Positions 1,237 through 64,000 are shown, counted from the stretch's first letter. The stretch is DNA of 64,000 bases from a virus (IMGVR_UViG_3300031993_000018:89614-153613), one strand, 5' to 3'. The notes: generated from the sequence alone by a model not told the origin. A program made the numbers and translations.

Positions 1237-1354
1237 CACATAAATACTATGAATATACAATGTTTTTGGTCCAGAGGATTCCGGAACCTTTTGAGTGTTA
1301 ATAAAAGACACGAATGGATTAGAGACAGTTAAATACAAAATAATTTAATAAAGT

Positions 1355-4758: not shown

Positions 4759-4788
4759 ATTTTTGTTATATTTATAATTGAACTTATA

Positions 4789-34074: not shown

Positions 34075-34076
34075 GT

Positions 34077-35177: not shown

Positions 35178-35182
35178 ATCTT

Positions 35183-35500: not shown

Positions 35501-35502
35501 TT

Positions 35503-45994: not shown

Positions 45995-46477
45995 ATGAAG
46001 GTATTTTTCCCGGGGACTTTTGATCCCTTTACAATTGGTCATGAAGACCTTGTTAAGCGTGCATTGGCAATGGGTTTTGAGGTGGTAATCGGTATTGGCA
46101 TCAATGAGAAGAAGGAACCTCTCTTCACCATAACAGAAAGACTTGATGCCATCCGTAAACATTTTGCTGGTTACACCCGTGTTGGTGTTGTTCAGTATGA
46201 GGGACTCACTGTTGATGCTGCCAGGGCAAATGGTTGCCAGGCAATCCTGAGGGGTGTCCGCTCAGTGGTAGACTTTGAGTATGAGAGAGGTCTGGCAGAC
46301 ATCAATGACAAGATTGACGGTATAGAGACCATCCTACTGGTATCCAAACTTGATCTCCAGTATGTGAGTAGCAGTTTTGTCAGAGAACTCATCCACTTTG
46401 GTCGCAACCCCAAGGATATGGTGATTGACACATTCCAACCGGATGTGGAACTCAAGGCATACTACAATAAGTCATAA
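45995..46477 (+). CDS. coaD: Phosphopantetheine adenylyltransferase (CoaD/PPAT), copy 1
   Basis: FPGTFDPFTIGHEDLV (compare E. coli YPGTFDPITNGHIDIV), ILRGVRSVVDFEYE (LIRGLRAVADFEYE), YVSSSFVRELI (FISSSLVKEV). Confidence 0.8.
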   Translation: MKVFFPGTFDPFTIGHEDLVKRALAMGFEVVIGIGINEKKEPLFTITERLDAIRKHFAGYTRVGVVQYEGLTVDAARANGCQAILRGVRSVVDFEYERGLADINDKIDGIETILLVSKLDLQYVSSSFVRELIHFGRNPKDMVIDTFQPDVELKAYYNKS

Positions 46478-48748: not shown

Positions 48749-50719
48749 TTGGCACAGTATATCAAGATAGGAGGTAGATGGAAACAAATCAGGTCTGTCT
48801 ATAAGAAGGTAAACGGTACCTGGATCCCCCAAGAGTATTATAATTTTGATGACAATATCCACTTCTTTAATGCAGCAGAGGTGGATGTTGATGTTTTCAC
48901 TATTGTATCAGAAGACTCTTATACCGGTAAACAGTTCTATCTTGTTGCAAAGTTCAATGGTACAAGAGTGTATCCTACCTGGTCAATCACATCAGGAAAT
49001 GAATATGCCACAGTCAACAGTAATGGTAAGGTGACCATACTTGCCGGAGCCCACAATAACACTATCACAGTTCATGCTTCACTCAATGGTCTGGGAAAGT
49101 CCAAGACCATCACAGTGTCTTACAGCAACCAGTTGTCAATTGAGGGTGCTGACACAATGTCAGGAACATCGGGTAACCTGATTGCCCTTTACAACTCAAC
49201 CATAGTTGTTCCTACCTGGTCAATCACATCAGGAAGTCAGTATGCCGAGATATATCCGACAGGTCAAATCTCCATTATGGATTCAGGACAGATTACAGTA
49301 TCTGCCACATATGATGGGTATACTGCAACCAAGGTCATCACTCTTGTCTATGATGAGAACAGTTCAGCATATACAGATGTTGATCCCGACACCGGTGCAG
49401 TCACAACAACCGAGACTACAACAACAGTTGACCCGGAGACAGGTGCAACAATAGAGACAACAACATCTACAACAACCAACACTGACGGTTCTACATCAGA
49501 GACATCAACAGAGACAACAACAAACACTGATGGTTCTACAACAACCACAGAGACAACTACCAATTCAGATGGTAGCAGCAGTTCATCAACCACATCAGTG
49601 TCTTCAGCAGATTCAGATGGTGCAGTCACAACAGAGACCAGCACCACAACCAATAATGCAGATGGTACATCAACAGAGACCAACTCTACAACAGTTGAGA
49701 ATGAAGACGGATCTTCAACATCAACATCATCCACTGTAAACTATGATGAGAATGGAAATGAGACATCATCATCCTCATCAACAGTGAATGTTTCATCAGC
49801 AGATTCTGACGGTGCGGTTACGACAGAGACCAGCACAACAACAAACAATGCTGACGGTACATCATCAGAAAGTACATCCACACTGGTGGAGAATGAGGAT
49901 GGTTCATCATCATCACAGTCACAAACAGTCAACTATGATGAGAATGGTGACACCACAGGATCTACAACCAATGAGACCAATGTCAATTCTGACGGTTCAT
50001 CACAGAGTTCTACAACAAACTATGATGCATCAGGTGACCCGACAGACACAACCAATGTGGGAACAGACACCACAGGTAATGTGGACACCCAGAACATCGA
50101 GTATGATGAGGAGGGTAACCAGACAGTAACAGGTTATGACATCAACACAGAGGCAAGTGAAGGTGAAGGTAAGGAGATTAGTGGTGATGGAGTCAATACA
50201 GAGTTTGTTCCTTTTGATGACCAGGGTTCAGGATTCATCTGCCACATCAGATTCAAGACTGTTCAGTCAGAACAGCCGAGACCTCCTCTTGTTGAGGACA
50301 TAGATGACAGTGGTACAAACTATCTTTATAATGTAATGTCTGCCAAGTCACCTACAAAGATTGGTAACTACTATCCTGGCTTTGACATAAGATGGGCAAT
50401 CTCCAAGACCAATGCTTCCAGTGGAGTAATCCAGTTCAGGTATGCCCCCGCCAATTCAGGAAACACCCAGACTAACCTCACACCATATGGAGATAATGAG
50501 TATGACATCACAGTGACTTATGATCCCCATAAGTTATACAACAATTACAAGCTCAGGGTCACATCAGCACTGGGAAGTATCCAGACCATTCAGGCAGACA
50601 AGGAGTTTTCCACACTGAATATGGACTTCACAATAGGTTGCGCCCTTTCATCACAAGGTACACCATACAGACATGCCAATGTGACAATATATGAGTTCAC
50701 GATAACCAAGTTACATTAA
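48749..50719 (+). CDS. Tail fibre / receptor-binding adhesin with Big_2 Ig-like domains, Thr/Ser-rich tandem repeats and a C-terminal beta-rich domain
   Basis: Two Big_2-like blocks (ATVNSNGKVTILAGAHNNTITVHASLNGLGKSKTITVSY and AEIYPTGQISIMDSGQITVSATYDGYTATKVITLVY). A ~62-aa unit SSADSDGAVTTETSTTTNNADGTS...VENEDGSS...TVNYDENG is repeated twice, alongside shorter TTNTDGST repeats. Confidence 0.6.
   Translation: MAQYIKIGGRWKQIRSVYKKVNGTWIPQEYYNFDDNIHFFNAAEVDVDVFTIVSEDSYTGKQFYLVAKFNGTRVYPTWSITSGNEYATVNSNGKVTILAGAHNNTITVHASLNGLGKSKTITVSYSNQLSIEGADTMSGTSGNLIALYNSTIVVPTWSITSGSQYAEIYPTGQISIMDSGQITVSATYDGYTATKVITLVYDENSSAYTDVDPDTGAVTTTETTTTVDPETGATIETTTSTTTNTDGSTSETSTETTTNTDGSTTTTETTTNSDGSSSSSTTSVSSADSDGAVTTETSTTTNNADGTSTETNSTTVENEDGSSTSTSSTVNYDENGNETSSSSSTVNVSSADSDGAVTTETSTTTNNADGTSSESTSTLVENEDGSSSSQSQTVNYDENGDTTGSTTNETNVNSDGSSQSSTTNYDASGDPTDTTNVGTDTTGNVDTQNIEYDEEGNQTVTGYDINTEASEGEGKEISGDGVNTEFVPFDDQGSGFICHIRFKTVQSEQPRPPLVEDIDDSGTNYLYNVMSAKSPTKIGNYYPGFDIRWAISKTNASSGVIQFRYAPANSGNTQTNLTPYGDNEYDITVTYDPHKLYNNYKLRVTSALGSIQTIQADKEFSTLNMDFTIGCALSSQGTPYRHANVTIYEFTITKLH
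49598..49965 (+). repeat. Two tandem copies of a ~186-nt unit inside the fibre gene
   Basis: The DNA starting at 49598 (gtgtcttcagcagattcagatggtgcagtcacaacagagaccagcacc...) recurs from 49784 (gtgaatgtttcatcagcagattctgacggtgcggttacgacagagaccagcaca...) with about 85 % identity. Confidence 0.6.
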
Positions 50720-50858
50720 AACGGTTGCGACAACGAAGCACGAATCACCAATTCCAAAAGGAGTTGGTGATTTTTTTGTTAAAAAGTACGAAAATATTTG
50801 GAGGTATCAAATATTTCTTGTATATTCGTGACAGAAACCAATAAGAAAGAGGGTATAT

Positions 50859-51065
50859 ATGAATACAAAGGAAGAGATAATTGAGTTCATCAAGAATGTG
50901 AAGACAACCTCTGCAAGAAACAGTATGGGTTGTTCTGAGAACTGGTACAATGCATATTTTGCAATCTCTAAAACATTCACAATGGAGGAAATTGAGGCGA
51001 TGAGTGAGAAGGAACTGAATAATCTGGTCAAACTGGCCGACAATATTGCAGAAGGTTTATATTAA
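50859..51065 (+). CDS. Hypothetical protein
   Basis: 68 aa ORF behind extended promoter 50797..50828. Confidence 0.4.
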   Translation: MNTKEEIIEFIKNVKTTSARNSMGCSENWYNAYFAISKTFTMEEIEAMSEKELNNLVKLADNIAEGLY

Positions 51066-51076
51066 AACTGACAATT

Positions 51077-51289
51077 ATGACAAAGAAATCAATCCTGGTG
51101 CGCAAGATGCGCAGGGCATACAACAATAAGCACAACAGAGAGTATTCATTATTCAAGGGTTACCCCAGTGACACATACTTTGGTTACTACTCCTTTGATG
51201 AAATGAAGAAGAGTGTACTCAAAGATTTCAGAGAGTATTATGGAAAGGGATTGAAGAGATACAGATTCAAAAAATTAACACATTGCTGA
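51077..51289 (+). CDS. Small basic protein
   Basis: 70 aa, K/R-rich. Confidence 0.35.
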   Translation: MTKKSILVRKMRRAYNNKHNREYSLFKGYPSDTYFGYYSFDEMKKSVLKDFREYYGKGLKRYRFKKLTHC

Positions 51290-51357
51290 CAATCTGTCAT
51301 ACAAACCCGACGGTACAGCATTTGTATTATATATTGAGGATTTAAAACAACAAAGAT

Positions 51358-52197
51358 ATGGTTATAAATTACACCAACCTTAATGAGAACATCAACATCT
51401 ATTTCAAGGAGATCCGCAACTTCGCATCCCTGACAAGAGAAGATGAGGTAAGACTGTTCTCAAGAATCAAGACAGGTGACAAGTCAGCACAGGCTGAAAT
51501 CTTCAACAGGATGGCCAAGCTGGCGGTCAACATTGCCAAGACATACACAGGTGATGCAGACCTTTTGGAAGATCTCATCCAGGAGGCAAACATTGGTATC
51601 CTTACCGCCATTGACAAGTTTGACCTCAATTCCGGTTTCAGATTTTCATCATATGCCCGTTACTGGATGAAGGCCGCCATTTCCAAGTATCTTGATGAAA
51701 TGGGTGTGGTACGTCACTGCAATCCCCATCTTGTTGACCTGGCCAACAAAATCCGTGAGAAGTTCTACAAGGAGAACCAAAGGGATATCACCAGTGTGGA
51801 ACTGATGGATATGTTGGAGGATGCAGGTGAGGTGGTTGATGACATCAAGTCAATCACCAGCATCACCAATGTGAGGATTGATCTTCCTTATGATTGTGAT
51901 GAGTCCGGAAAGCCAAAGGGCGAATATGGAGACTTCGCAGACCGTACTGCCTGTGACAATGGGTTTGTAGAAAAGGAAAGAGCCGAGGAACTTTCAGAAG
52001 ACATCAGACGAAGACTCTCAAGACTCACTCCGAGGGAGCAGCAGTTGGTCCTGTTGATGTACGGTTTCGTCACCGGAGAAGAAATGGGTTATGACGCTGT
52101 TACAGAAAGGTGGAATGAAGGTAAGCCCGAGAAGGAACAGCTCACACAGGAGAGAGTCCGTCAGATCATCAAGGGTGCACTCAAAAAGATGAAGTAA
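51358..52197 (+). CDS. Sigma-70 family RNA polymerase sigma factor
   Basis: Region 2 LLEDLIQEANIGILTAIDKFDLNSGFRFSSYARYWMKAAI (compare DLIQEGNIGLMKAVDKFD...F.TYA.WWIRQAI); region 4 LTPREQQLVLLMYGF...ERVRQIIKGALKKM. Confidence 0.7.
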   Translation: MVINYTNLNENINIYFKEIRNFASLTREDEVRLFSRIKTGDKSAQAEIFNRMAKLAVNIAKTYTGDADLLEDLIQEANIGILTAIDKFDLNSGFRFSSYARYWMKAAISKYLDEMGVVRHCNPHLVDLANKIREKFYKENQRDITSVELMDMLEDAGEVVDDIKSITSITNVRIDLPYDCDESGKPKGEYGDFADRTACDNGFVEKERAEELSEDIRRRLSRLTPREQQLVLLMYGFVTGEEMGYDAVTERWNEGKPEKEQLTQERVRQIIKGALKKMK

Positions 52198-52384
52198 TGA
52201 CACAGGTTCAGATACAAATGCTTGAGAGTGCAATCCAGACTCATCAGAGTTCCCTTTACAGGGATGCGGAGGCATACAAGCGTCAGAACAACACTGAAGC
52301 AGTCAAGGACTGTCTTGCTGAGATAAAGAAGTTTGAAGACTTGAAAAAGTCACTTAAATCAATCCCTGTAGAAAAGTAATCACT

Positions 52385-52663
52385 ATGTTCCCATTTTTTA
52401 TCATCCCCTGGATACACTGGGCAATCAACAGAGAGGATCTCCCGGAGATAGACTCATCAAAAGAAACATTAAAGACAGCTATATATTTTGCCATCATCAC
52501 CCCCATATGGTTTGGATTGGGCATATGGTTCATTCCGAATATAGTAAGTGCCGGCAACCCGACTTTTGATATCGGACTGATTAAAATGGTAATATGTATA
52601 TTGGTATGGTTAGCAGTCTATGCTGCCGCAGGTGTAATAGGAATCAAGAAGATATTCAAATAA
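52385..52663 (+). CDS. Small membrane protein
   Basis: Three hydrophobic helices. Confidence 0.35.
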   Translation: MFPFFIIPWIHWAINREDLPEIDSSKETLKTAIYFAIITPIWFGLGIWFIPNIVSAGNPTFDIGLIKMVICILVWLAVYAAAGVIGIKKIFK

Positions 52664-53833
52664 TAAATTGTAAATAACTTTTGCTCACCTTATAAACGAG
52701 GTGAGCAAAATAAAACAGATAGGAAATATGGAAATAGAGGACATTACAGATCTCAATCCGGAGGAAGTACAGAATCTGGAGGTAAAGGAGTCAATTGAGG
52801 GGTGTGGTTTTGTTGCAAGAGACAAGTGTGGAGACTTGTATTTCTTCAACACTTTTGAGAAACCCATAAGAGATAAGTTTCTTGGTATCAAGAGTGGTAG
52901 ATGGGTTTCAGTGAAAAGATGTCTTGTATTCAGACTGAATCCCAAAAGTTTCAAGAATGTTACCTGGGAGTCAGAGCCATTGATGGTGACACTGACAATA
53001 AAACCTAATGACTGGACAAAATGACAGACAAAAAGAAAAAAATTAGGGATATTCTCCTGCCTACACTGGTACTCCAGATGTTCGCTCATAAGACTTCTGA
53101 TGAAACATTGGAGGAAATTACAGATTCCTTCAATGATGACATCAAGAAACTTGAAGAACAGATGAAGCAGTCAATCATTGATGAGAAAATCTCCAATGAC
53201 AGGTACAACAAGGAACAGATGAAATTCAGAAAAAGGTTTTATAAGAAATGAACAACTTTACAAGTATAGAGGAAGGTTACACCCTGTTACACCTGGGTGT
53301 CAATAGGATCAGTGCAGATATGTACTATGGTTACAAGAGGGAGAAACCCGTTCCTCTTCCATACAATGATGTGGAGATAACCCATTTATGTACACCTTGC
53401 TGGACAGTTGGGGCACTGTTGGAAATCCTGCCGTCAGGTAGTTCAATTGTCAAGAAAAGTGAGGGTGCATATTACTGCACATGTCCACTGAAGAAGGATG
53501 AGGTTCCCACAACATATGAGACTCCTGTCAAGGCAGCATATGAAATGGTGGTCTGGTTGTTGAAAAAGAAAAGAAACAAGTAATGTCAAGGGAATGGATA
53601 GAACATCAGGACAACAGTGGTGAAACCATCTTCAGGGTGGGAGACACTGTTGAGGCAGGTGACATCAGATATGAACTGGGAACCTGTTTCAGACCTGGTA
53701 TATCCATCATTGAAATCAACATCACAAGGAGATCAATCACAACCCACAATGAAGGGTTTGGAAATTTCCAGATGACATACAGTAAGAATATGTCCGAAGA
53801 GGACTTCTATAATGAAATCAAAAAGAGACTGAT

Positions 53834-54277
53834 ATGAAAGAGATAACATACAGTAACAGTATGAATAATGTCTACCTGGCAGACAAGGGTGAATACAAGG
53901 GAGTCAAGTACTTCATCATTGCTGGTGGTATCCATCCCTGTGCATATGTCATGTGTGACGAGGAGTTTGTCAACAACCACAGGAATGAGTGGGGAGACCT
54001 GGACTGCATCAGTGTGCATGGTGGCGTCACCTGGTTGGAAGATGCCGACCATCTGAAGTGTCACCCTGATGACTGCACAGGTATATGCTTCGGTTGGGAC
54101 TATGGTCATGCCGGTGACTGGGCAGGTTACCATCAGGATGTGGAGAATATGGTCTATGAGAACCACAAATACACTCTGATGGAAATCCAGTATCACTGTA
54201 AGGATGCCATTGACCAGTACCTGAAAGCAATCAGGAAAGAGAGAAGAGGTGACAACTACAACAAAAGTGAAAAGTGA
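53834..54277 (+). CDS. Hypothetical His/Cys-rich protein
   Basis: HPCAYVMCDEEF...CISVHGG...HLKCHPDDCTGICFGWDYGHAGDWAGYH suggests metal binding. Confidence 0.4.
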   Translation: MKEITYSNSMNNVYLADKGEYKGVKYFIIAGGIHPCAYVMCDEEFVNNHRNEWGDLDCISVHGGVTWLEDADHLKCHPDDCTGICFGWDYGHAGDWAGYHQDVENMVYENHKYTLMEIQYHCKDAIDQYLKAIRKERRGDNYNKSEK

Positions 54278-54346
54278 TATGAAACCTTGCGATAACGACC
54301 CGCGATAAACCCTTTGTGTTAAAAAGTCTAAAAATATCAGGAAATA

Positions 54347-54378
54347 TTTGGTGGTTCCGAAAATATATTGTATCTTTA
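54347..54378 (+). promoter_or_regulatory. Sigma-AB type promoter, extended conserved form
   Basis: gaaatatTTGgtggttccgaaaatatattgTATCTTTAcatcagaaac. Confidence 0.5.
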
Positions 54379-54400
54379 CATCAGAAACAAGAAACAAAAA

Positions 54401-54980
54401 CATAAAAGATATGAGTACAACAAACTACAACTTCAAGAGAATGGATGAGGATGAGAAGATCCTTGCTATGGTAGAGTTGCTTGGCGCAAATTCCCCAGAG
54501 ACAGCAGTCACAATGGAGCAGATAATCGCCAAGGGTATCGAGACAGGAGCCACTGAAGACTATTTCAGAGAGAACTGGCATGGTTACAAGGAGGGAGATC
54601 ATCCCTGGTGGCAGAAGGTCGCCCCTATGATGGGTGTAGGCACAATCGAGGAGGTCAGAGCACATGACTGTCCCCATCTTCACCGCCGTCAGGTCAAGGA
54701 AATGAAGAATGACCGCAAGACCAATGTCATGAGATACTGGATTGATGAGTCAATGACTCACAAACAGGTCATCAGACAGAAGAAGGTCAAGACAAAGGTC
54801 AATGTTCTTCCTGAGATTCCACCTATGGAGGTAAGGTTCAGAGGTGAGGATGGTGCACAGCAGAAGGCTAAGGAGAATCCAGACTGGATTGCCATCAATG
54901 GAAGGGTTTACAGCCGCCAGTTCATCCTGGATCACCCAGAGAAATTCAATTCTGTTGAGATTGCTATGGCCAGACAGTAA
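54401..54980 (+). CDS. Hypothetical protein
   Basis: Internal ATG of ORF 54348..54980, placed after the promoter. Confidence 0.45.
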
Positions 54981-55115
54981 CACTTAAATCATCACAATAT
55001 GAAAAAGGGAAGCAAAACAATCCTGGGAGAGTACACAATATCTGACAATCCCATTGAAGGAAGACGAGTGGCAGTCCATTACAGTGACGGTTCCACAAAA
55101 ATAATCTGCAAATAA

Positions 55116-55147
55116 TTTGGAATATCCGAAAAGATCCATTATATTTG
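55116..55147 (+). promoter_or_regulatory. Sigma-AB type promoter (TTTG, then 20 nt, then TATATTTG)
   Basis: aataaTTTGgaatatccgaaaagatccatTATATTTGtaatg. Confidence 0.5.
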
Positions 55148-55500
55148 TAATGTAAGGGAATAAGATATGAAGAAAAGATTCAATGTTATCAGACAGGTCC
55201 TCGTCACAACAGAGGACATCTGGGAGGCAGAGTCAGAACAGGAGATCCTGGACAGGCTTGAGGATGGAACATCACTTGCCGGGGAAATATCTCTCTTGGG
55301 ACTCAAGTCAAGACCGGGAAGGATTGTCAAGTATCAGTTCCCGACTGATCCAAAAGTAAAAGAGTTAAATAAACCGTTGTGATGTTGTTTTAAGTCCTAA
55401 AGATTCATACCGCAATCATCAAAAATAAAATATTGATTATTACTTTTAAGAATCTTGTTAATCCGCTTTAAGACAACATCACAACATAAAAATCAAAACA

Positions 55501-55755
55501 ATGGCAATACGAAAAGTAACAAATGAGGAACTTCGTCAGATGATGAAGGAGGGAAAGGTGACTTTCCAGTACAAGAAGAAGGACGGTTCAATCCGTCAGG
55601 CAACAGGTACACTCAAACCTGAGCTCATTGAGAAGAAATCACAAGGAGGTCCTTGTTATCCCAAGGAAGCAGGATATTCAGTCTATTGGGATATGGATAA
55701 GAGGTGGTACAGAGTCTATGCGGAGTCTCAGCTTGTTGGTGTTGTCGAAGGTTAA
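55501..55755 (+). CDS. Small stand-alone domain protein, homologous to the C-terminal domain of leader-family member 58458..58892
   Basis: VTFQYKKKDGSIRQATGTLKPELIEKKSQGGPCYPKEAGYSVYWDMDKRWYRVYAESQLVGV aligns with IVRFQYRKK....RTAWGTRKSEVITKIPHGGECPPKKVGYSLYFDMEKSDWRVFWSGRLIGV. Confidence 0.5.
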   Translation: MAIRKVTNEELRQMMKEGKVTFQYKKKDGSIRQATGTLKPELIEKKSQGGPCYPKEAGYSVYWDMDKRWYRVYAESQLVGVVEG

Positions 55756-55766
55756 TCACAATCAAT

Positions 55767-56354
55767 ATGAATAATATAGTCAGAGAATCTATAATGGCAG
55801 GAATTCTCATTGGTCTGGGTGCATATGGTTACCTGGCCCTGGGTGGAATCCCCGGTGCAATCATCTTTGCCTTCGGTCTGATATGTGTTGTCCTTATGGA
55901 AGCATATCTCTATACCGGAAAGGCAGGAGTCCTCACCAACATCAAAAATGTGACTACCATCTGGTTTTTCAACATCCTTGCCTGTGGACTCATAGGTCTG
56001 ATGGTCTGGTATCTGGGTGGAAAACCTGTTGAGGTAGCACAGGAAATTGTCGCAAACCGTCTCGCGACAGAACCTCTCAAGGTATTCCTCAAGGCACTTG
56101 GTTGCGGACTCATCATTGATCTCTCCTGTGCCTCATACAGAGGTAGCAAGAGTCTCCTTCCCATTCTTTTCGGTGTCCCATTGTTCATCATACTGGGATT
56201 CTACCATTCAATTGCAGATGTGGTTTACATTGTTGCTGCATGGGACTGGTCAAAGGATCTCATCTGGTATTACCCCCTGATTGTAGTGGGTAACTATGTG
56301 GGATGCAACATCAGAAGACTGGTATATGTAACCAGATGGATTCAGATAGGATAA
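55767..56354 (+). CDS. Multi-TM channel-like protein, possible FNT (formate/nitrite transporter) family
   Basis: GLICVVLMEAYLYTG resembles FocA SLGLILCVVCGADLFTS (L-F-T signature). LGFYHSIADVVYI resembles FocA SGFEHSIANMFM (conserved His of TM5). At 196 aa it is shorter than canonical FNT proteins. Confidence 0.35.
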   Translation: MNNIVRESIMAGILIGLGAYGYLALGGIPGAIIFAFGLICVVLMEAYLYTGKAGVLTNIKNVTTIWFFNILACGLIGLMVWYLGGKPVEVAQEIVANRLATEPLKVFLKALGCGLIIDLSCASYRGSKSLLPILFGVPLFIILGFYHSIADVVYIVAAWDWSKDLIWYYPLIVVGNYVGCNIRRLVYVTRWIQIG

Positions 56355-56535
56355 TAATCTAAAACAAATTGACAATGAAAGATAACTTAATCAACCTGAT
56401 TTTAGACAACAGAAATTCTGTTTCTGACAAGGTGTTGGAAATTATGCTTGAGAAGTTGTACCAGGCAGGTACACAGGCAGGCTGGGTAGATGGTTTCAAT
56501 AACGGAGTAAATTATCAGCAATCAAATTAAAAGAT

Positions 56536-57159
56536 ATGGGTAAGAAAATAATTACCATCATCATTGATGATGACAAGAAGAGCATGAGTGTTGACATTAT
56601 CAAGGAGAAAGAGACCAATGTGGGAAAGTACATTGTCACCACCTCAAACTTCTCCGGATATGGAAAGGATATCCTGGATGATGCGTATGTGATAGGAATC
56701 CCCTGCAAGATTCTGACAGAACCATATCAGAAAAGAAAAAAGAACATCCTGGGTCATTATGAAGAGACCAAGGAGGTCATTGATGTCATGTCAATGGTGA
56801 CAGGTAAGACATATACAATCCCGACAGGTTGGGGAAACATATTTGACACCCTGGAGGAAGCAAACAACATTGCAAAAACCAAGGGAACATACAATCCTTC
56901 AACCAAAAACCTCATAGGTAAAAAGTACTGGCCATATAGTAACTCATTCAACAAGGATTTGGTGACCGGTGCAAGGTATAATCTTGTTGATAAAGAGTGC
57001 AGGATAGTCTCTGAACCGTTCAGGGAAAAGACCGGTGACCCGCAGTTCAAGAATGTGGAATGTGATTTCATTCTCGTGTATCATGAGGGAATGGTCTACA
57101 GGGTACAGTTCGGTGAGTGGGGACTTCAGGATCGTTTATATCGTTTAACCAAAAAATAA
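56536..57159 (+). CDS. Hypothetical protein, paralog family B
   Basis: About 40 % identical to 57783..58364 (KKIITI.I..D...NVGK..V.T.N......DAY..G.PCKIL.EPY...). Confidence 0.5.
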   Translation: MGKKIITIIIDDDKKSMSVDIIKEKETNVGKYIVTTSNFSGYGKDILDDAYVIGIPCKILTEPYQKRKKNILGHYEETKEVIDVMSMVTGKTYTIPTGWGNIFDTLEEANNIAKTKGTYNPSTKNLIGKKYWPYSNSFNKDLVTGARYNLVDKECRIVSEPFREKTGDPQFKNVECDFILVYHEGMVYRVQFGEWGLQDRLYRLTKK

Positions 57160-57163
57160 ACTC

Positions 57164-57772
57164 ATGTACAGACATAATTCAAAAAAGGCTGTAAAAGAGA
57201 TGGAGGCAGGTCTCCAGGCAATGGCGAACATCAAGGTAAAGTATGGCATCAGAGGTATCCAGTCTGCCCGTTTTATGAAGGACAGTGTTGTCGCTGACAA
57301 TCTCGGAAATGTCCAGATGAACACCAATCCTCACGGATGGGATGGAATATTCAGCAATGGTGTCTTCTATGAGAACAAGAATGTGTCGGCCGATGCCAAG
57401 AGTCAGGTCTCATTCTCACTCAAGTTCCAGGACACTTCAGAGGAAAAACTTGAGGAACTCAAGGATGGAGTCATCTGCACCACATCATTCTTTGATGACG
57501 GCAAGGCATGTCCTGGTTTCCTGATGGTTGGAAACACCAGGATGGTGGGAGATCTCCTTCAGATCTCATACAACCCCACAACCAGGAAGTCCTGTCAGGT
57601 AAGCCTGCCCAAGTGTATCAAGAATGGTTTCAAGATTGTCGCCTGGGAGTATGACAGAAAGCAGGTATGGGATATCCTCTCCTCAAAGTTCCCCCGTCTG
57701 GGAAATGTGATGACCATAAATGACATTCACACCAAGAGGGATCTCAAGAACCTGGTCGCAAATATGATGTAA
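57164..57772 (+). CDS. Hypothetical protein
   Basis: 202 aa ORF between the two family-B paralogs. Confidence 0.45.
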   Translation: MYRHNSKKAVKEMEAGLQAMANIKVKYGIRGIQSARFMKDSVVADNLGNVQMNTNPHGWDGIFSNGVFYENKNVSADAKSQVSFSLKFQDTSEEKLEELKDGVICTTSFFDDGKACPGFLMVGNTRMVGDLLQISYNPTTRKSCQVSLPKCIKNGFKIVAWEYDRKQVWDILSSKFPRLGNVMTINDIHTKRDLKNLVANMM

Positions 57773-57782
57773 TCTGGTAACT

Positions 57783-58364
57783 ATGGCAAAGAAGATTATA
57801 ACAATTCAGATTGAGATTGATGTCCCCGAGTCAAATGTGGGAAAGTTTATGGTTCCAACACACAACTATGGTGAAGTGGATGAAAATGATGCATATCTGG
57901 CCGGTGTTCCCTGCAAGATTCTCTCTGAACCTTATATGGCAACAGTGAAGACTTTCTGTGGGATACAGGAAAGAAGGGAACTTGTTGATGTGAAGTCAAT
58001 GGTGTCCAACATCAAGTACACAATTCCCACAAGTCTGTTCGGTCCGGTCTATGACACACTGGCAGAGGCCAATAAGCATGCAAAGATTCAGGGTGTTGAG
58101 AACCCCAGGATGAAGGATCTCATAGGAAAGAGGTACTACCCCTTCGACAATTCCTGGAACAAGGATTTGGTCAATGGAAAGTGGCATAACCTTATTGACA
58201 GTGACTGTACAATCATAGGAATCCCCTTCAAGGAACTGACGGGTGATCCCTTTCCGGATGTAATAGACAAAAAGATGGTCTTTGTCCATGTCCTTTCGAA
58301 TGGACAGGCACACAGAGTCCTCTATGGTGACTGGGGTCTGATTCCTGGTAAGTTAAGGAAATAA
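57783..58364 (+). CDS. Hypothetical protein, paralog family B
   Basis: Homolog of 56536..57159; followed by a terminator plus TTTTGTTATATTTAA cassette. Confidence 0.5.
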   Translation: MAKKIITIQIEIDVPESNVGKFMVPTHNYGEVDENDAYLAGVPCKILSEPYMATVKTFCGIQERRELVDVKSMVSNIKYTIPTSLFGPVYDTLAEANKHAKIQGVENPRMKDLIGKRYYPFDNSWNKDLVNGKWHNLIDSDCTIIGIPFKELTGDPFPDVIDKKMVFVHVLSNGQAHRVLYGDWGLIPGKLRK

Positions 58365-58457
58365 AAACAGTCCTCCGGGCCAAAATTCCGGAGGATTTTG
58401 TTATATTTAATATGTGAAACGGACATAAATAAAGTATATAACTAAATCACTGTTAAT

Positions 58458-58892
58458 ATGAGTATTTGGGATGATATGCTTGATAAGGGTGTCGGTGAAA
58501 AGGAGGCTCTGGAAGACAGGGCTCAGTTCAGGGATGACATCACTCCTGAAGATTTGAATGAGATGCTCCTTTCCGGAATTGTCCGTTTCCAATACAGAAA
58601 GAAGGCAAAGAAAGGTCAGCCGGAGGACAGTGGTGAGGTCAGGACTGCCTGGGGTACCAGGAAGTCAGAAGTGATCACCAAGATTCCTCACGGTGGTGAA
58701 TGTCCCCCCAAGAAAGTCGGTTATTCTCTCTACTTTGATATGGAGAAATCCGATTGGAGGGTGTTCTGGTCAGGAAGACTGATTGGAGTATGGGACAAAG
58801 TTTACACTGAACCTGAATTCACCAGGCTGTATGCCAAACTGAAGGCAGAAGAGGCCAAGGAGAAAAAGGAAGAGGTGATACCTGAAGAATAA
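58458..58892 (+). CDS. MSIWGDMLD-leader family member 5 (leader fused to the 55501-type domain)
   Basis: MSIWDDMLDKGVGEKEALED..., then a domain homologous to 55501..55755, then a K/E-rich tail. Confidence 0.6.
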   Translation: MSIWDDMLDKGVGEKEALEDRAQFRDDITPEDLNEMLLSGIVRFQYRKKAKKGQPEDSGEVRTAWGTRKSEVITKIPHGGECPPKKVGYSLYFDMEKSDWRVFWSGRLIGVWDKVYTEPEFTRLYAKLKAEEAKEKKEEVIPEE

Positions 58893-58945
58893 AAGGATTT
58901 TCAGAATCCATAACATCGATGTTTAACCTTTTAAATTGAATTGTA

Positions 58946-59182
58946 ATGAAGCACAAGACAGTTCGTACAATCCTGCTTGATTTTGTTGAGGCAAATGGTC
59001 CGCAGAGTTGGAACACACTGCACAGAGAGGTACTTGTAGTTTCAGGTCAGCCCCTGACACGAAACGAGTACGGAAGCTCATACCTTGATCAGGTTTCTGA
59101 GTCATCAGTGTGCAGACCTACCCGTCGTGAGAGTCGTTATCTCCAGAAGAGAGCAGACGGTCTCTACCACCTGGTAAAGTAA
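58946..59182 (+). CDS. Hypothetical protein
   Basis: 78 aa ORF followed by a terminator/TTTTGTTATATTTAA cassette. Confidence 0.35.
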   Translation: MKHKTVRTILLDFVEANGPQSWNTLHREVLVVSGQPLTRNEYGSSYLDQVSESSVCRPTRRESRYLQKRADGLYHLVK

Positions 59183-59271
59183 TCAGGAAAGAGATGAAAA
59201 AATTGACCTCCGGGATGAATTTCCTGGAGGTTTTTTGTTATATTTAATGTGATAATAATAAAGTATTTAGT

Positions 59272-59883
59272 ATGGATAAACTTAGTTATGCATTAGGTGT
59301 CAGCGTTGGTCAGAACCTGATAACACAGTTCGGAATCAAGGATTTGAATTTCGAGGAATTCACAGAGGGATTGAAAGTAATGTTCGGTAAGGTAGAAAAC
59401 AAGATGTCTATTGATGACATCAACAATACCATAAATGAACACATAAAGAAGATCCATGATGAGAAGAAAAAAGAACAGAAGAAGATCAATGAGAATAACC
59501 TGAAGGAAGGAAAGGCATATCTTACAGAGAATGCCGAGAAGGATGATGTTACTACAACCAAGTCAGGACTCCAGATGAAGGTACTTAAGGCAGGACCTGG
59601 ATACATCTCTCCGGGACCACATTCAAGAGTAAGAGTCCACTATGAAGGCAAACTCATTGATGGAACAGTGTTTGATTCATCATACCAGAGAGGTGAACCT
59701 GTTGAGTTTGGCCTGGATCAGGTGATTCCTGGTTGGACAGAAGGTGTACAACTGATGAAGGAGGGAGATGTATTTGAATTCACCATCCCATCTGAATTGG
59801 GTTATGGTGAGGTAGGAGTTCCAGGTCATATTCCTGGTAATAGTGTCCTGATCTTCAAGGTGGAACTTATAAAGATATTGTAA
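59272..59883 (+). CDS. FKBP-type peptidyl-prolyl cis-trans isomerase
   Basis: GLQMKVLKAGPG...VHYEGKLIDGTVFDSSYQRGEPVEFGLDQVIPGWTEGVQLMKEGDVFEFTIPSELGYGEVGVPGHIPGNSVLIFKVELIKI is a canonical FKBP domain. Confidence 0.75.
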   Translation: MDKLSYALGVSVGQNLITQFGIKDLNFEEFTEGLKVMFGKVENKMSIDDINNTINEHIKKIHDEKKKEQKKINENNLKEGKAYLTENAEKDDVTTTKSGLQMKVLKAGPGYISPGPHSRVRVHYEGKLIDGTVFDSSYQRGEPVEFGLDQVIPGWTEGVQLMKEGDVFEFTIPSELGYGEVGVPGHIPGNSVLIFKVELIKIL

Positions 59884-59884
59884 T

Positions 59885-60343
59885 ATGGGAATGACATTAT
59901 TTTATCCAGGGACTTTTGATCCCTTTACAACAGGACATGCCAACATTGTCCAGAGAGCAGTTAATATGGGTTTCAATGTTGTCATAGGTATTGGCAAGAA
60001 TTCGGGCAAGACTCCAATGTTCAGTCCTGAACAGAGACTGGAGGCAATCTCAAGTTATTATGCAGGAAATCCCAATGTGAAGGTTGTGGAATATGACGGT
60101 CTTACTGCGGATGCGGCAGCGAAACTTGCAGACGGTATATTGAGAGGTATCAGGAACGGTACCGACTTTGACTATGAGAACACAATCGCCCATGTGAACA
60201 GACAGGTGAACAGGATAGAGACTGTTTTCCTCCCTGCAATCGAAGGATACTTCTTTGTCAGCAGCACTCTTGTCAAGGAACTGTACAGAAATGGGGAGGA
60301 TGTTTCAAATTATATCATAGACACTTTCAAACCTTATCTGTAA
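59885..60343 (+). CDS. coaD: Phosphopantetheine adenylyltransferase (CoaD/PPAT), copy 2
   Basis: YPGTFDPFTTGHANIV, ILRGIRNGTDFDYE, FVSSTLVKEL. About 55-60 % identical to copy 1. Confidence 0.75.
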   Translation: MGMTLFYPGTFDPFTTGHANIVQRAVNMGFNVVIGIGKNSGKTPMFSPEQRLEAISSYYAGNPNVKVVEYDGLTADAAAKLADGILRGIRNGTDFDYENTIAHVNRQVNRIETVFLPAIEGYFFVSSTLVKELYRNGEDVSNYIIDTFKPYL

Positions 60344-60476
60344 ATGAAACTGGCGGAATATTTACTGACAAAGAATTTTTGTCATATAAGATGTAATCCG
60401 GAAGATGGGTGTTTCTCAAACTGTCCTCATTACAAGATGTTGATAGGTAGATATGGAGATGGGGAAGTTATCAAAT
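60342..60476 (+). CDS. Possible tiny Cys-rich protein (44 aa)
   Basis: Hand translation gives MKLAEYLLTKNFCHIRCNPEDGCFSNCPHYKMLIGRYGDGEVIK; the ATG overlaps the coaD2 stop (TAAATG). Confidence 0.25.
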
Positions 60477-60856
60477 AATGTTGAGGTGGATTATAGAGTC
60501 CCCCATATATTACTGTGGAGGTTGTACACCGGAGGAGGTTACCTGTGCGGGATGTGCCATAATGAAGATCCTGAAGGCAATGTTTCTGGACATATTCCAG
60601 GAAACAGTGTCCTGATTCTCAAGTTACAATTGTCCAATTTTGTCCGATTCCCATTGCAAATCACTCATCACCAGATGTTTAGATCAATTCCCAATAATGA
60701 GTGGTTGTCTGATAATCGGACAAAGTATCCGGACATAAATCAAGTCAGTGTGTCTAAATTCTCAATACCAAAATGAGTATTTAGACACATTTTTCTTGCG
60801 GTGACGGACTGCGAAAAGAAAATATTGAAAATATTTTCAAAAAAGTTCCCAAAATA

Positions 60857-60888
60857 TTTGGTGGTTTAAAATAAAACCGTTATCTTTG
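60857..60888 (+). promoter_or_regulatory. Sigma-AB type promoter, extended conserved form
   Basis: aaaatatTTGgtggtttaaaataaaaccgtTATCTTTGtatcagaaagg. Confidence 0.5.
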
Positions 60889-60920
60889 TATCAGAAAGGA
60901 ACAATAAAGACATAACAATT

Positions 60921-61151
60921 ATGGAGATCAACTATAACGAGACAAAGGCCAATGCAGTATATGAGGTAAAGACAATGATGACTGTATATCTCGGATGGAC
61001 ATCAAAGGAGGTGCCTGTAGAGTTCAGAATTCTGGAAATGCCTTGGGATAAGGGCAAGACACCCGAGCAGTTGGTCAAGGATATAGAGAGATCTGCCAGT
61101 GTTGAGTTCAGTATGAAGAAGAAACACCTCAGTATTGAGAAAATATCTTAA
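60921..61151 (+). CDS. Hypothetical protein
   Basis: 76 aa ORF. Confidence 0.4.
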   Translation: MEINYNETKANAVYEVKTMMTVYLGWTSKEVPVEFRILEMPWDKGKTPEQLVKDIERSASVEFSMKKKHLSIEKIS

Positions 61152-61168
61152 CTTAAAACAATAATGAT

Positions 61169-61567
61169 ATGAAAGAATTTTGGAATTTTATTGTTGAGGC
61201 ATATAATGCCAACACTTCAAATAAAGTAGCAATGATATTTGTACTGGTCATATTAATCGGTCTGATATTGTTCTGGATCCGTGATGCAAAACTCAACAAG
61301 GAGTTACAAAGGGAGGCAAACAAGTACCTGGAAGACAACCAGAAGAGAATTTCTGAAATCAGGATAAGGATTATGACCTGTGACAACCTGAAGGACTGGC
61401 CTAATGTCAAGAACTGGGCGATCGCGGCCGCAAACAATATTAGATCTGAGATATTCGACATAGAATACAACTATGGACAGATATATGGAAACCGGATTGT
61501 GAAGGATATAACAAATATGGTTTTCAGAAAGGAGGAGGAACTTATAAGGAAGACATTTAAGGAATAA
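61169..61567 (+). CDS. Hypothetical protein with N-terminal TM anchor
   Basis: VAMIFVLVILIGLILFWI. Confidence 0.4.
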   Translation: MKEFWNFIVEAYNANTSNKVAMIFVLVILIGLILFWIRDAKLNKELQREANKYLEDNQKRISEIRIRIMTCDNLKDWPNVKNWAIAAANNIRSEIFDIEYNYGQIYGNRIVKDITNMVFRKEEELIRKTFKE

Positions 61568-61626
61568 AATAAGTTTCGGATGGCACCCAATGCCGAAGAA
61601 ACAATGTTGTTTTCATGTTGTTATGT

Positions 61627-61680
61627 GTTTTTGGGGTGCCGGACTGTTGTGAAATAATACCGGCACCCATTTTTTTAAAC
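61627..61680 (+). terminator. Strong rho-independent terminator
   Basis: GGGGTGCCGGactgttgtgaaataataCCGGCACCCatttttttaaa: a 9-10 bp GC-rich stem followed by T7. Confidence 0.6.
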
Positions 61681-61693
61681 GAAACAAATAGAA

Positions 61694-62377
61694 ATGAAGA
61701 ATATAGAAGACATAAACACCAAATATCCAAGGACATATCATCTGCCTTGGTCACCCGGAGCCACTTCTGATGACAAGAAGTTGTCCTCAGACTGGTTTGA
61801 TGCAGATGAATGGAAAGGAAAGGAGATTGTGATCACTGAGAAGCTTGACGGTGAGAACACCGCCTTCTGGAATGGTGATGTCTTCAGCAGAAGTCACTCG
61901 GTTCCCACCAGGTCACCCTGGTCAAGAAACCTTTGGGACAAAGATGGACTCCTGTGGGTGATAAAAGACAAGATCTCCCCGGAAGAGATTGTCTATGGTG
62001 AGAACCTTTATGGTGAACACAGCATACACTATGACAGACTTCCGGCGTATTTCTTCGCCTTCGCCTGCCGCAGGGAAAATCAGTGGTGGAGTTGGGATGA
62101 TGTTGTTCTGATGGCGGATATTCTGAATGTACCGACAGTTCCTGTCCTGTGGAGAGGAAGGTTGGAGTCAGAGTCTGAACTGAAGGAGATGATCTCCAGG
62201 TTTATGTCCCAACCATCGGCATTCGGTGATACAAAGGAAGGAGTGGTGATAAGAAAGGTCGAAGGATTTGACAACAAGGACTTCTCCAAGAATGTCGCCA
62301 AGTATGTGAGGGAAAATCATGTCCAGACTGACCAACACTGGACAAAGAACTGGAAAAGAGCAAAGTTAATAGTTTGA
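61694..62377 (+). CDS. ATP-dependent RNA ligase-like nucleotidyltransferase
   Basis: N-terminal KYPRTYHL, motif I KLDGEN, motif IV EGVVIRK, plus downstream Lys residues. Confidence 0.55.
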   Translation: MKNIEDINTKYPRTYHLPWSPGATSDDKKLSSDWFDADEWKGKEIVITEKLDGENTAFWNGDVFSRSHSVPTRSPWSRNLWDKDGLLWVIKDKISPEEIVYGENLYGEHSIHYDRLPAYFFAFACRRENQWWSWDDVVLMADILNVPTVPVLWRGRLESESELKEMISRFMSQPSAFGDTKEGVVIRKVEGFDNKDFSKNVAKYVRENHVQTDQHWTKNWKRAKLIV

Positions 62378-62464
62378 TATAACAAATATGAGAGAGTTGG
62401 TTCCGAGAGAATTGAGAGGTGTTCCTGATGAACACTACAGCGAAGACGATATTGACGATTAGTT

Positions 62465-63250
62465 ATGAACATAAAAGAAGTAATAGAACAGTTTATCAAG
62501 GATTTCACAGTCCCTTACAACACAGAGTTCGCAAAGAGAACTGTGGAGATCTTCACCAATGGCAAAGAAGGTCAGAACCTGGATGACTATTTCGGATGCA
62601 GGTTCATCTTCTACAATGGTGAGAGGAGGATCATCATCAAGGAGAAGGGACACCCGCATGATTTCTATGTGTGTGAGTGGGAAAAGAACAATGAGTACTC
62701 AAATGTCAGTATCAACAATCTCATCTATGATATCCTGGATGCCAAGTATTATGAGAATGCATATAATTGTTTGGATGACAGGTATGAGATAAGTATTGAC
62801 AGAATCAAGGAGATCAATGAGTTCTTCGGAATCAATCTTCCTGTTGAAGACCAGGGTGTGCCGGAGGGAAACAAGATTTGTTTCAGTGGTGACGGTTGGG
62901 ATGACGGTGCCCAGGAATGTCTGGAGGAGAGTGATCTCTTCACTGAACTGAAGGATTCTGTAAAAAAGTATTTCCAGTATGAGTATGCACCTTACAAGAA
63001 ATACAACCCTTACTTCAATCCATTCAGATATGCCAAGGCCAACAAAGACTATGACATGATATTTGAGGAACTGGACAAAGACCAGATTTTCAATGCTCTC
63101 ATCTCCATCCTGGATAAGAAGACCAACAAGGAGAAATTCAAGAAATTCTACTATACACTGAATGACAACTCACAGATCAAGATGTTAGTTGAGGCACTTG
63201 GTCTTGATGAACTGATGGTTATCAGATGTAATACACTTTACAACCTATGA
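62465..63250 (+). CDS. Hypothetical protein
   Basis: 261 aa ORF. Confidence 0.45.
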   Translation: MNIKEVIEQFIKDFTVPYNTEFAKRTVEIFTNGKEGQNLDDYFGCRFIFYNGERRIIIKEKGHPHDFYVCEWEKNNEYSNVSINNLIYDILDAKYYENAYNCLDDRYEISIDRIKEINEFFGINLPVEDQGVPEGNKICFSGDGWDDGAQECLEESDLFTELKDSVKKYFQYEYAPYKKYNPYFNPFRYAKANKDYDMIFEELDKDQIFNALISILDKKTNKEKFKKFYYTLNDNSQIKMLVEALGLDELMVIRCNTLYNL

Positions 63251-63633
63251 GAAAGTTAATGATGTTAATCATCCTGATGTTGGGATTCATCTCCTGCGAC
63301 AAGTTTGGGGACAACAGGGATCTCGTCAATTACATCAGCACAGGTATCTTCCATGATACCTGGGGAACGGTGGACAACCAGTCTTCAATATCCTGGGACA
63401 TTACCCCCATCAGTGCTGATCATGTCAGGAATGACATCACATACCTGAAGGTCTTCATCAACTCCTACTATGTGGAATACAACTACAGTGAGGTGATGAG
63501 TGATGAAGAGTTCATACATTTTATGAAGAATATTGAAAGGAAGGAGAAAACATCAGATATTGTACAGATTAATGACAGTATCAGATGTACCTGGAACCTT
63601 TTCTACAAAGTATATAACACATATATAAAATGA
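63247..63633 (+). CDS. Putative lipoprotein
   Basis: MRKLMMLIILMLGFISCDKF: signal peptide with lipobox. Confidence 0.45.
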   Translation: MRKLMMLIILMLGFISCDKFGDNRDLVNYISTGIFHDTWGTVDNQSSISWDITPISADHVRNDITYLKVFINSYYVEYNYSEVMSDEEFIHFMKNIERKEKTSDIVQINDSIRCTWNLFYKVYNTYIK

Positions 63634-64000
63634 ACAAGCAAGGGGATAACAATAACAGTGTGCTTACCTGGCAGGACATCTGGAATGGACCTTTCCAGAG
63701 TGACCACTATGGTTATGTATGGGGAGCAGATGGTGTTCCGGTGTTCACTGTTGACGACCTGACCGAGGAGAATGACAAGCAGATGCAGGAGTTCTGCCAG
63801 AATATGGTAAAGGCACTGAACGGTGAGGAGTGCAAGAAGTATTCAGGACTCTATGTGACCGACGGTTGCGATTTCTACCAGTATGGAAATCTTATAGGAT
63901 ATTTCAGAGGTTGGGGTCATCTCACCGGAGGACTGAAGATGAAGGAGGATATGGCTGCCCAGTATCAGAATGAGATGATCAAGGCAGTTATGGATAAGAT
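63632..64000 (+). CDS. Hypothetical protein (3' end beyond the window)
   Basis: The ORF opens at ATG 63632 and runs to the window end. Confidence 0.4.

Follow-up and report, generated by a model that had tools for sequence, protein, structure and literature searches.

It has previously been reported that the internal proteins of phage T4, and the T4 protein Alt, carry at their N-termini a capsid targeting sequence (CTS) of 10-20 residues, such as MKTYQEFIAE, which docks them to the core of the prohead (PMC9026906, PMC8442874, PMC3012670, PMC5694885). The T4 protease gp21 removes this sequence at L/I-X-E, and residues 4 and 7 determine targeting (PMC9026906). The internal-protein genes encode diverse counter-defence proteins that share only the CTS (PMC3012670). 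The giant phages phiKZ, 201phi2-1 and SPN3US cleave their head proteins behind a Glu, at the short motifs S/A-X-E or A-X-E and frequently more than once per protein, and the SPN3US paralogues gp53 and gp54 have an identical 15-residue N-terminus (PMC5694885). Here we describe a 20-residue N-terminal peptide, which we call the tag, from a 64,000-nucleotide stretch of viral DNA (IMGVR_UViG_3300031993_000018:89614-153613, hereafter the window). In gene 58458..58892 of the window it precedes a WYL_2 domain, and it heads many other, unrelated proteins. By analogy, the T4 CTS and the propeptides of the giant phages appear to be its closest functional counterparts.

The gene 58458..58892 has an untagged paralogue in the same window, and the features of the two genes are as follows.

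58458..58892, + strand: tagged WYL_2 gene, 144 amino acids (aa), made up of tag, barrel and C-terminal helix; stop codon at 58890..58892
58458..58517, + strand: tag of this gene, 20 residues, MSIWDDMLDKGVGEKEALED, the window's version of the general motif
58527..58805, + strand: WYL_2 (Sm-like SH3 beta-barrel) domain, residues 24-116, with a helix (30-39) and then five strands
58605..58628, + strand: basic insert AKKGQPED, 8 residues (50-57), which is the gap of the pairwise alignment and is specific to the tagged clade
58809..58889, + strand: extension at the C-terminus, with a predicted helix at 118-139 and then an acidic tail whose last residues are VIPEE (AlphaFold2 secondary structure)
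55501..55755, + strand: stand-alone, untagged WYL_2 paralogue, 84 aa, Pfam PF10902

BLASTP aligned residues 28-111 of the 144-aa protein with residues 6-81 of the 84-aa protein, with 37/84 residues identical (44%), 62% positives, one 8-residue gap and E=1e-21 for the pair. A first-pass annotation of this DNA had claimed a shared domain of about 45% identity, to be abandoned if E exceeded 0.01, and the alignment bears this claim out. The conserved motifs that it listed are also present (FQY[KR]KK, GT, GG.C, GYS.Y.DM.K and L[VI]GV), apart from its 'WRV', which is really 'RV'. Its description of the stand-alone copy as starting at the domain boundary is approximately right; in fact 5-8 residues precede the domain. 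Both proteins pass the gathering score (26.7 bits) of PF10902 WYL_2, formerly DUF2693, with 44.8 bits over residues 31-108 of the tagged protein and 64.2 bits over residues 9-72 of the stand-alone one, and both match phrog_1086, a family listed as function unknown. To judge by its sequence, there is nothing unusual about the cargo domain as a PF10902 member.

Three elements of the tagged protein are missing from the stand-alone copy, namely the tag, the basic insert at residues 50-57 and the C-terminal helix. The insert occurs in 6/6 tagged and 0/6 untagged orthologues, and a V[YF].[ST]E.EF segment of the C-terminal extension is conserved among the orthologues of the tagged protein. Residues K48, K49, R62, R101 and C82 are invariant over 20 WYL_2 sequences including the stand-alone copy, so that the WYL-superfamily conservation pattern of basic residues and Cys is present in the window proteins. 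An AlphaFold2 model of the 144-aa protein, built on 20 homologues, had a mean predicted local distance difference test (pLDDT) score of 75.5. Tag residues 1-19 scored below 50 and were modelled as disordered, and the block of residues 24-116 scored mostly 85-92, with a dip to 67-69 over residues 71-90; this is the separate, disordered leader before a folded domain that the earlier annotation had expected of a structure prediction. A Foldseek search of the PDB with the model returned, as its top matches, SH3 domains along with the BrxR and CapW WYL domains, all of them weak (E>0.1 for BrxR/CapW) and none at E<=0.001, and no solved-structure relatives of the WYL_2 family were found by sequence. 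These weak matches agree with the literature, where DUF2693 has been placed in the WYL / Sm-like SH3 superfamily and its conserved basic residues and a Cys are thought to line a ligand pocket (PMC4012209). The window proteins differ from the WYL regulators (PF13280; BrxR, CapW) in being single-domain, with neither a helix-turn-helix nor a WCX domain. At the other end of the tagged protein, the sequence [VI]-[IV]-P-E-E (residues 140-144, 58875..58889) is kept in the closest orthologues; VIPEE holds an I-x-E that resembles a gp21-type site. T4 Alt is also processed at its C-terminus (PMC9026906).

The tag itself can be written as MS[IV]WxD[IM]xxR[SG]xGxxx[RK]KED. The first 20-25 residues of the tagged WYL_2 protein match the starts of five other genes in the window, at 34478, 34651, 34917, 35183 and 35503 (tblastn within the window; four at E=2e-6 to 3e-5 and the remaining one at 0.03), and a hidden Markov model (HMM) of the leader scores the protein at 2.4e-8; the first-pass annotation had listed it as a distant sixth member of a leader family. 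The array formed by the five genes, its flank and the untagged members of two tagged families lie as follows.

33283..34481, + strand: two genes directly upstream of the array, encoding a phrog_10081 protein (263 aa) and a 134-aa Cys-rich protein
34478..35916, + strand: tandem array of five tagged genes of 58, 89, 86, 105 and 137 aa, with start and stop codons overlapping or 3-6 bases apart
53834..54277, + strand: untagged member of a cargo family that is tagged in the related loci L002 (2546..3070) and L007 (3778..4299)
56536..57159 and 57783..58364, + strand: two untagged paralogues, on either side of 57164..57772

The cargos of the array (34478..35916) matched no Pfam and no PHROG family. 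At the same locus, a 411-kb phage from IMG/VR carries an array with different cargos. The phrog_10081 match upstream is strong (E=4e-74 in the window and 6e-72 in locus L013), and the gene order is the same in L013 (5273..6492). The tag array follows these two genes each time, and is a conserved but variable locus with a fixed flank. PHROGs labels phrog_10081 as 'transposase'; the window protein has no Pfam match.

In the window and the related loci, the leader HMM found 46 distinct tagged proteins of unrelated sequence, all on the coding strand, with cargos of 31-190 aa and mixed charge; 14 of the tagged genes are in the 18.7-kb locus L002. The motif lies at the extreme N-terminus in 45/46 of them, the exception being a gene whose longest ATG open reading frame (ORF) begins 14 codons earlier. 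A scan of 43 tagged proteins revealed no significant Pfam or PHROG family except WYL_2. One of these 43 gave a weak match to Pfam Gp23, the T4 major capsid family (E=0.005), which is probably due to chance. Four cargo families were found both with and without the tag. WYL_2 is one. The family of 53834..54277 is untagged in the window and tagged in L002 and L007 (BLASTP of the post-tag part, E=3e-34 to 5e-41), and that of 56536 and 57783 is untagged in the window and tagged in L002 and L003 (BLASTP, E=1e-16 to 7e-19), where the tagged counterpart is syntenic, directly upstream of tagged WYL_2. The fourth family, that of gene 12213 in L002, is tagged there and untagged in L001. The first-pass annotation had called the leader a detachable module on the evidence of the WYL_2 pair, and these proteins extend that view well beyond the pair: like a CTS, the tag is a transferable N-terminal peptide common to unrelated proteins.

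The tag is a previously undescribed short linear motif, matching no Pfam or PHROG family, no deposited phage genome and nothing that we found in the literature. Known export signals were considered and rejected. A Sec, Tat or lipoprotein signal peptide, which would call for a hydrophobic core of at least 10 residues behind a basic N-region, and for a lipobox Cys in a lipoprotein, does not fit because charged residues run all along the tag (MSIWGDMLDRGTGEKIKKED), which has neither a hydrophobic stretch nor a Cys; a double-glycine leader was discarded because the tag has G-x-G rather than GG, and also on grounds of composition.

The conservation begins exactly at the ATG, with none upstream. Between paralogous tags within one genome, the nonsynonymous divergence (dN) is 0.21-0.31 and the median synonymous divergence (dS) is 1.3-1.6, that is, saturated. 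At Ser11 both AGY and TCN codons are used, and at Gly13 all four codons. The saturated dS and the switching between codon boxes at Ser11 indicate that selection acts on the peptide and exclude recent gene conversion; for these reasons, and because nothing is conserved upstream, we reject the idea that a DNA repeat or gene conversion keeps the tags alike. Each genome also has its own version of the tag. The consensus is MSIWGDMLDrGtGeKiKKED in the window, MSIWADIHKRSNGvqvRKED in L002, MSVWNDIRKRgNG..IKkED in a 344-kb phage and MsfWGDMRrRSSGEeeRgED in L004, and the mean identity between tags is 13-15/20 within a genome against 8.6-9.8/20 between distant genomes. The tag of the WYL_2 gene 58458 follows the same rule: it shares 12.4/20 with the other window tags, versus 8-10/20 with the tags of its own orthologues, whose barrels are 58-66% identical to its own. 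Given that genome-wide versions are shared despite saturated synonymous sites, the simplest reading is that the tags of a genome co-evolve with one phage-encoded reader, and the partner that reads the tag would thus have changed together with each phage genome.

The tag-WYL_2 fusion is old. Among the 20 closest database homologues (49-91% identity), 18 have an intact tag followed by WYL_2; in the other two the tag is partly deleted (P0007) or degenerate (P0005). Two database searches together with a look-up of clusters yielded 133 proteins, of which 118 have a Met1 tag with WYL_2, so that at least 118 database proteins combine the two. When WYL_2 proteins were placed in a tree by neighbour joining, the tagged and the untagged ones fell into two clades, each with one protein per genome for six related genomes, so that the duplication and fusion predate these phages. 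The fusion is therefore not a recent within-genome event; the two forms are old orthologous groups. The related contigs come from rumen metagenomes and are syntenic, and most have the order untagged WYL_2 (84-90 aa), 1-3 genes, tagged WYL_2, 79-aa gene and FKBP gene.

We also searched a profile of the tag only against 1.84 billion representative proteins (E<=0.001), and 490 of these matched. The best matches were from a sister lineage and were not small tagged proteins; they were proteins of 300-1159 aa with 2-7 internal copies of the motif about 153 aa apart. At position 1, where stand-alone genes have Met, 386/388 of the internal copies have Glu. In front of these 388 copies, Asn predominates at position -1, one of I, V, L or M occupies position -2 in 86%, and positions -3 to -7 are Lys-rich. 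The internal copies are thus preceded by an [I/V/L]-x-E context, which occurs in the sister lineage only. The first copy usually begins 5-12 residues after the protein's own Met. The pre-sequences, 6-13 residues long (MKKLSE, MKKLSKITE, MSKFYEHITE, MIPDFKTYIKE and MGTIKSFKKFIEE are examples), all end in hydrophobic-x-E; 122/122 end in E, and the residue two positions earlier is L, I or V and rarely T or F. The multi-copy proteins are encoded on phage-like rumen contigs of 106-136 kb, one of which has a six-copy protein of 896 aa together with eight tandem genes that start with MKKLSx(hydrophobic)xE-S[IV]WSDIQDRSTGE..RKED. A WYL_2 orthologue, P0097, has MSETKKVNE in front of SVW in place of Met1, and so links the Met-started and internal formats directly. 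The word 'leader' used in the first-pass annotation describes the window lineage, where the motif is N-terminal, and may be a misnomer for the long proteins of the sister lineage, where it is internal.

About 84% of the modules between the copies belong to one family of about 130 aa, and the remainder are spread over another 29 clusters, a GNAT pre-module among them. Leucine-rich repeats of the DUF285 type were also seen, in P0135 and P0141. The sister-lineage modules show no homology to any ORF of the window. In an AlphaFold2 model of one unit, motif residues 1-22 have pLDDT below 50 and are followed by a confident domain, and the best fold match of the commonest unit is the DNA-binding domain of the T4 transcription factor MotA, a weak one (probability 0.87-0.90, E=0.17). 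The gene order around the multi-unit protein is S-adenosylmethionine (SAM) synthetase, Metallophos, Cpn10, a 287-aa gene, the multi-unit protein, ATP-grasp, RimB-like protein and RecA; no homologues of ATP-grasp, RimB-like or Cpn10 proteins were found in the window or the examined loci of its relatives. Four sister-lineage proteins (P0134, P0135, P0138 and P0147; loci L018, L022 and L023) consist of units of about 150 aa, each opened by the tag motif. Three of these four share a C-terminal tail, GVPGG..GGMG..FPG..PGSGDLP.PTG.VY.Q.APF, followed by a poly-Lys run and then by FRKEDE.CVHS.

How closely does this resemble T4? Both the tag and the CTS of internal proteins IPI-III and Alt are short, portable N-terminal peptides found on diverse small proteins that are otherwise unrelated. 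As in T4 internal-protein genes, small tagged genes form a variable array at a conserved locus (PMC3012670), and the sister-lineage motif adjoins a gp21-type [L/I/V]-x-E, with pre-sequences such as MSKFYEHITE resembling MKTYQEFIAE (PMC8442874). Positions 4 and 7, which govern targeting in T4 (PMC9026906), hold in the tag an aromatic and a hydrophobic residue, respectively. Unlike the T4 CTS, however, the tag of the window lineage is preceded by nothing, is 20 aa rather than 10, shows no significant sequence similarity and ends in RKE|D, which is not of the T4 type; because it does not end in the cleavage motif and is unrelated in sequence, we do not count it as a member of the CTS family. The propeptides of giant-phage ejection and inner-body proteins bear no sequence relation to the tag motif either; they are mostly longer than 100 aa, have no single motif spread over many unrelated proteins, and belong to phages of Proteobacteria. 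Short portable terminal peptides that dock diverse cargo inside a protein shell are also known as encapsulin cargo-loading peptides and microcompartment encapsulation peptides, and the encapsulin shell has the HK97 fold, as do phage capsids. Compared with the tag, these peptides are unrelated in sequence, usually C-terminal in encapsulins, and are not known to be linked to proteolysis.

Based on these comparisons, we propose as the best explanation that the tag is a T4-like virion-targeting and processing tag, a tentative proposal to which we give slightly less than an even chance. It starts from the observed architecture and portability of the tag, the selection on its protein sequence, its genome-specific versions and the sister-lineage [I/V/L]-x-E context, and from these we infer a partner, packaging and cleavage. 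The tag would dock the tagged proteins to the assembling prohead, as the CTS does in T4; the proteins would be packaged and delivered to the next host together with the DNA, and would be processed by a Glu-specific prohead protease. The WYL_2 barrel would then exist in two versions, a tagged one delivered with the virion and an untagged one that appears only once genes are expressed. Cleavage behind the Glu of the sister-lineage context would leave a Ser N-terminus, the same end that Met removal gives, so that the motif may be retained on the mature protein. In a stronger version of the proposal, the motif of 20 residues would serve as a universal address label that can be moved between proteins and that specifies every protein packaged and injected by this clade of uncultured Bacteroidales megaphages. 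The label would come in two formats, as separate Met-started genes and as multi-module polyproteins, which the head protease would cut at the [I/V/L]-x-E before each label, and would be kept with a second role, for example in ordering or tail ejection. A label retained after cutting would be a targeting logic distinct from that of the T4 CTS, which is discarded. We consider this stronger version rather unlikely.

Several observations weigh against virion targeting. Genes for head proteins, portal or a prohead protease did not turn up in the window or the examined loci, nor did any structural annotation (PHROG or Pfam scans of the large ORFs of the window, L010, L013 and L027-L029, and Pfam labels of the called genes of L018, L020 and L022), and the tagged genes sit among non-structural genes, such as those for the sigma factor, FKBP and RNA ligase. 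In the window lineage the tag begins at Met1, so that no [L/I]-x-E precedes it. Its conserved Glu19 has Arg or Lys at P3, which does not make a T4-type site, and the window tags end in [RK]-K-E-D, with A-L-E found only in 58458, rather than in a removable L/I-X-E. The putative cut in the sister lineage lies before the motif, which would therefore stay on the protein, unlike the removed T4 CTS, and the likeness of the pre-sequences to MKTYQEFIAE is too short for statistics. Given that 84% of the internal copies precede one family, [IVL]-N-E could also have been inherited with the module instead of being selected as a cleavage site.

These points leave room for readings in which the tag never meets a prohead. 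It may be a retained docking peptide for a hub outside the virion, gathering small effectors at one place in the infected cell, and the hub could be a phage or host complex, for example RNA polymerase together with the phage's sigma factor, the replisome, a chaperone like the FKBP of the phage, or a membrane or compartment. The tag is short, disordered and amphipathic at its start (W4, [IM]7), its genome-specific versions point to a phage-encoded partner, and both the non-structural neighbourhood and the weak resemblance of the commonest internal module to T4 MotA would suit such a role. It does not explain, however, why Lys-rich sequence and [I/V/L]-x-E precede the internal copies or why the CTS-like pre-sequences end in hydrophobic-x-E, nor has a candidate partner been identified, and we regard this reading as possible and on the doubtful side. 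A second way of acting on an exposed, disordered N-terminal peptide common to many small proteins would be a degradation or turnover signal, by which a host or phage protease removes small early proteins on schedule. The window does encode an aminopeptidase of the M42 family; to our knowledge, M42 enzymes have no known recognition of sequence motifs, which counts against this use. Genome-specific versions fit poorly with a conserved host protease, and repeated copies between folded modules would not be expected of a degron, so that we consider it improbable. The M42 (glutamyl) aminopeptidase gene (4789..5889, + strand; Pfam E=7e-54) is an unusual auxiliary gene in its own right, and any link between it and N-terminal processing of the tagged proteins would be speculative.

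The remaining readings are at variance with more of the data. The combination of a conserved leader, variable downstream sequence and multi-copy precursors, with ATP-grasp (RimK-like) and RimB-like protease genes 2-4 genes downstream of the sister-lineage multi-copy protein, is reminiscent of ribosomally synthesised and post-translationally modified peptides (RiPPs), in which a leader is recognised by a modifying enzyme, for example an ATP-grasp ligase, or by a leader-cleaving exporter. However, the cargos are folded domains of 31-190 aa and not short cores, the Gly-Gly cleavage motif is absent from the tag, neither a modifying gene nor an exporter adjoins the window arrays, and, as noted above, the ATP-grasp and RimB-like proteins have no homologues there or in the relatives' examined loci; a RiPP leader would be a considerable surprise. 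Tandem arrays, and the single family that makes up 84% of the internal modules, would also be expected if the conserved N-terminus were an ancestry remnant, left by fast-diverging paralogues that kept their first 20 codons without any tag-specific function. This reading is largely refuted, and we give it very little credence: the untagged homologues of the WYL_2, 53834 and 56536 types begin at the domain, which shows that the tag was gained or lost independently of the cargo; the 20 residues are conserved though dS is saturated; and the tag versions follow the genome and not the cargo phylogeny. Conservation at the nucleotide level, as a translation-initiation or regulatory element or a cassette recombination site, draws on codon usage. 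Among the 36 tabulated tags with Ser2, this residue is encoded by AGT or AGC every time (a further tag carries Gly there), compared with 31% AGY among the Ser codons of the window, Ile7 is always ATA in L002, and the window has a tRNA-Ser(GCT) gene (1149..1237, + strand), which reads AGY. Against this, the synonymous sites elsewhere in the tag are saturated, Ser11 is encoded from both codon boxes, all four Gly codons occur at Gly13, and the internal copies of the sister lineage are not at start codons. A nucleotide-level element as the main cause is largely refuted, and of all the explanations we find it the hardest to believe, while a minor constraint on codons 2-4 is possible.

The tag is specific to a clade of rumen megaphages, which are probably phages of Bacteroidales. 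In IMG/VR, the gene or the tag pattern occurs on two contigs only, of 344,746 and 411,604 bp, which makes this a megaphage clade. The tag pattern is also present on contigs binned into Rikenellaceae and Bacteroidales rumen metagenome-assembled genomes (MAGs), a weak hint at the host. Three tag-bearing phage contigs of 18-36 kb in those MAGs are GTDB genome contigs (L027, L028 and L029), and one of them encodes a 447-aa tagged protein, the largest single-tag cargo seen. Close annotated relatives were not found by megablast of positions 50000..64000 against 50,697 deposited phage genomes, and neither the 144-aa protein nor the motif consensus had a tblastn match in these genomes. The helicase gene reaches only a crAss-like phage, at 34% identity. 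The 10 kb upstream of the window hold metabolic and unknown genes only.

The tagged WYL_2 gene appears to belong to a short transcription unit, bounded as follows.

58369..58397, + strand: terminator-like hairpin upstream of the tagged WYL_2 gene
58398..58411, + strand: box TTGTTATATTTAAT, directly after this hairpin and upstream of the tagged WYL_2 gene
58946..59182, + strand: 78-aa gene, apparently co-transcribed with the tagged WYL_2 gene
59205..59248, + strand: second terminator-like hairpin (59205..59232) with the same TTGTTATATTTAAT box, closing the two-gene unit

Because the tagged gene and the 78-aa gene are bracketed by the two hairpins, they look like a two-gene transcription unit. 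The 78-aa gene is conserved 3' of tagged WYL_2 in most related loci and absent from the short contig L025, and its protein has no Pfam match and no PDB match. The box TTGTTATATTTAAT has four exact copies on the + strand of the window (at 715, 2628, 58398 and 59235) and nine matches with <=2 mismatches, against 1.6 expected, with variants at 4763, 9992, 42591 and 48416; twice it stands directly behind a GC-rich terminator hairpin. The box could be a promoter of the phage, or else a cassette combining terminator and promoter.

Other genes conserved in most related contigs encode an SPFH/Band_7 protein (47151..48368), a sigma-70-like factor (51358..52197), a formate/nitrite-transporter-like membrane protein (55704..56354) and an FKBP-type prolyl isomerase (59272..59883), all on the + strand. 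An RlaP-type nucleotidyltransferase of an RNA-repair family (35969..37288, + strand; Pfam E=5e-19) and an RNA ligase (61694..62377, + strand; E=2e-30) together suggest that the phage has RNA-repair capacity. Two + strand genes, 45995..46477 and 59885..60343, are apparent cytidylyltransferase-like paralogues, both beginning M..F.PGTFDPFT.GH; the second, the only one of the pair scanned, matches Pfam CTP_transf_like (E=4e-17). The stop codons of 124 non-overlapping + strand ORFs in the window are TAA in 80, TGA in 44 and TAG in none, the TAG trinucleotide occurs 362 times against about 1314 expected, and no in-frame TAG was seen inside an obvious gene. This depletion fits a lineage that avoids TAG or has reassigned it, a behaviour known from phages of the gut (bioRxiv 10.1101/2021.08.26.457843).

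If the tag does mark proteins for loading into virions, the set of proteins that uncultured rumen megaphages inject into their hosts could be listed from a simple sequence pattern. The WYL_2 pair, tagged and untagged, would then be a case in nature of a single domain put to use both before gene expression and after it, and the multi-copy proteins would amount to phage polyproteins whose cleavage grammar can be read. The tag could also serve to load foreign cargo, as the T4 CTS does. Even if the virion reading is wrong, the tag is a new linear motif with about 490 representative carriers and clear signs of co-evolution with a reader.

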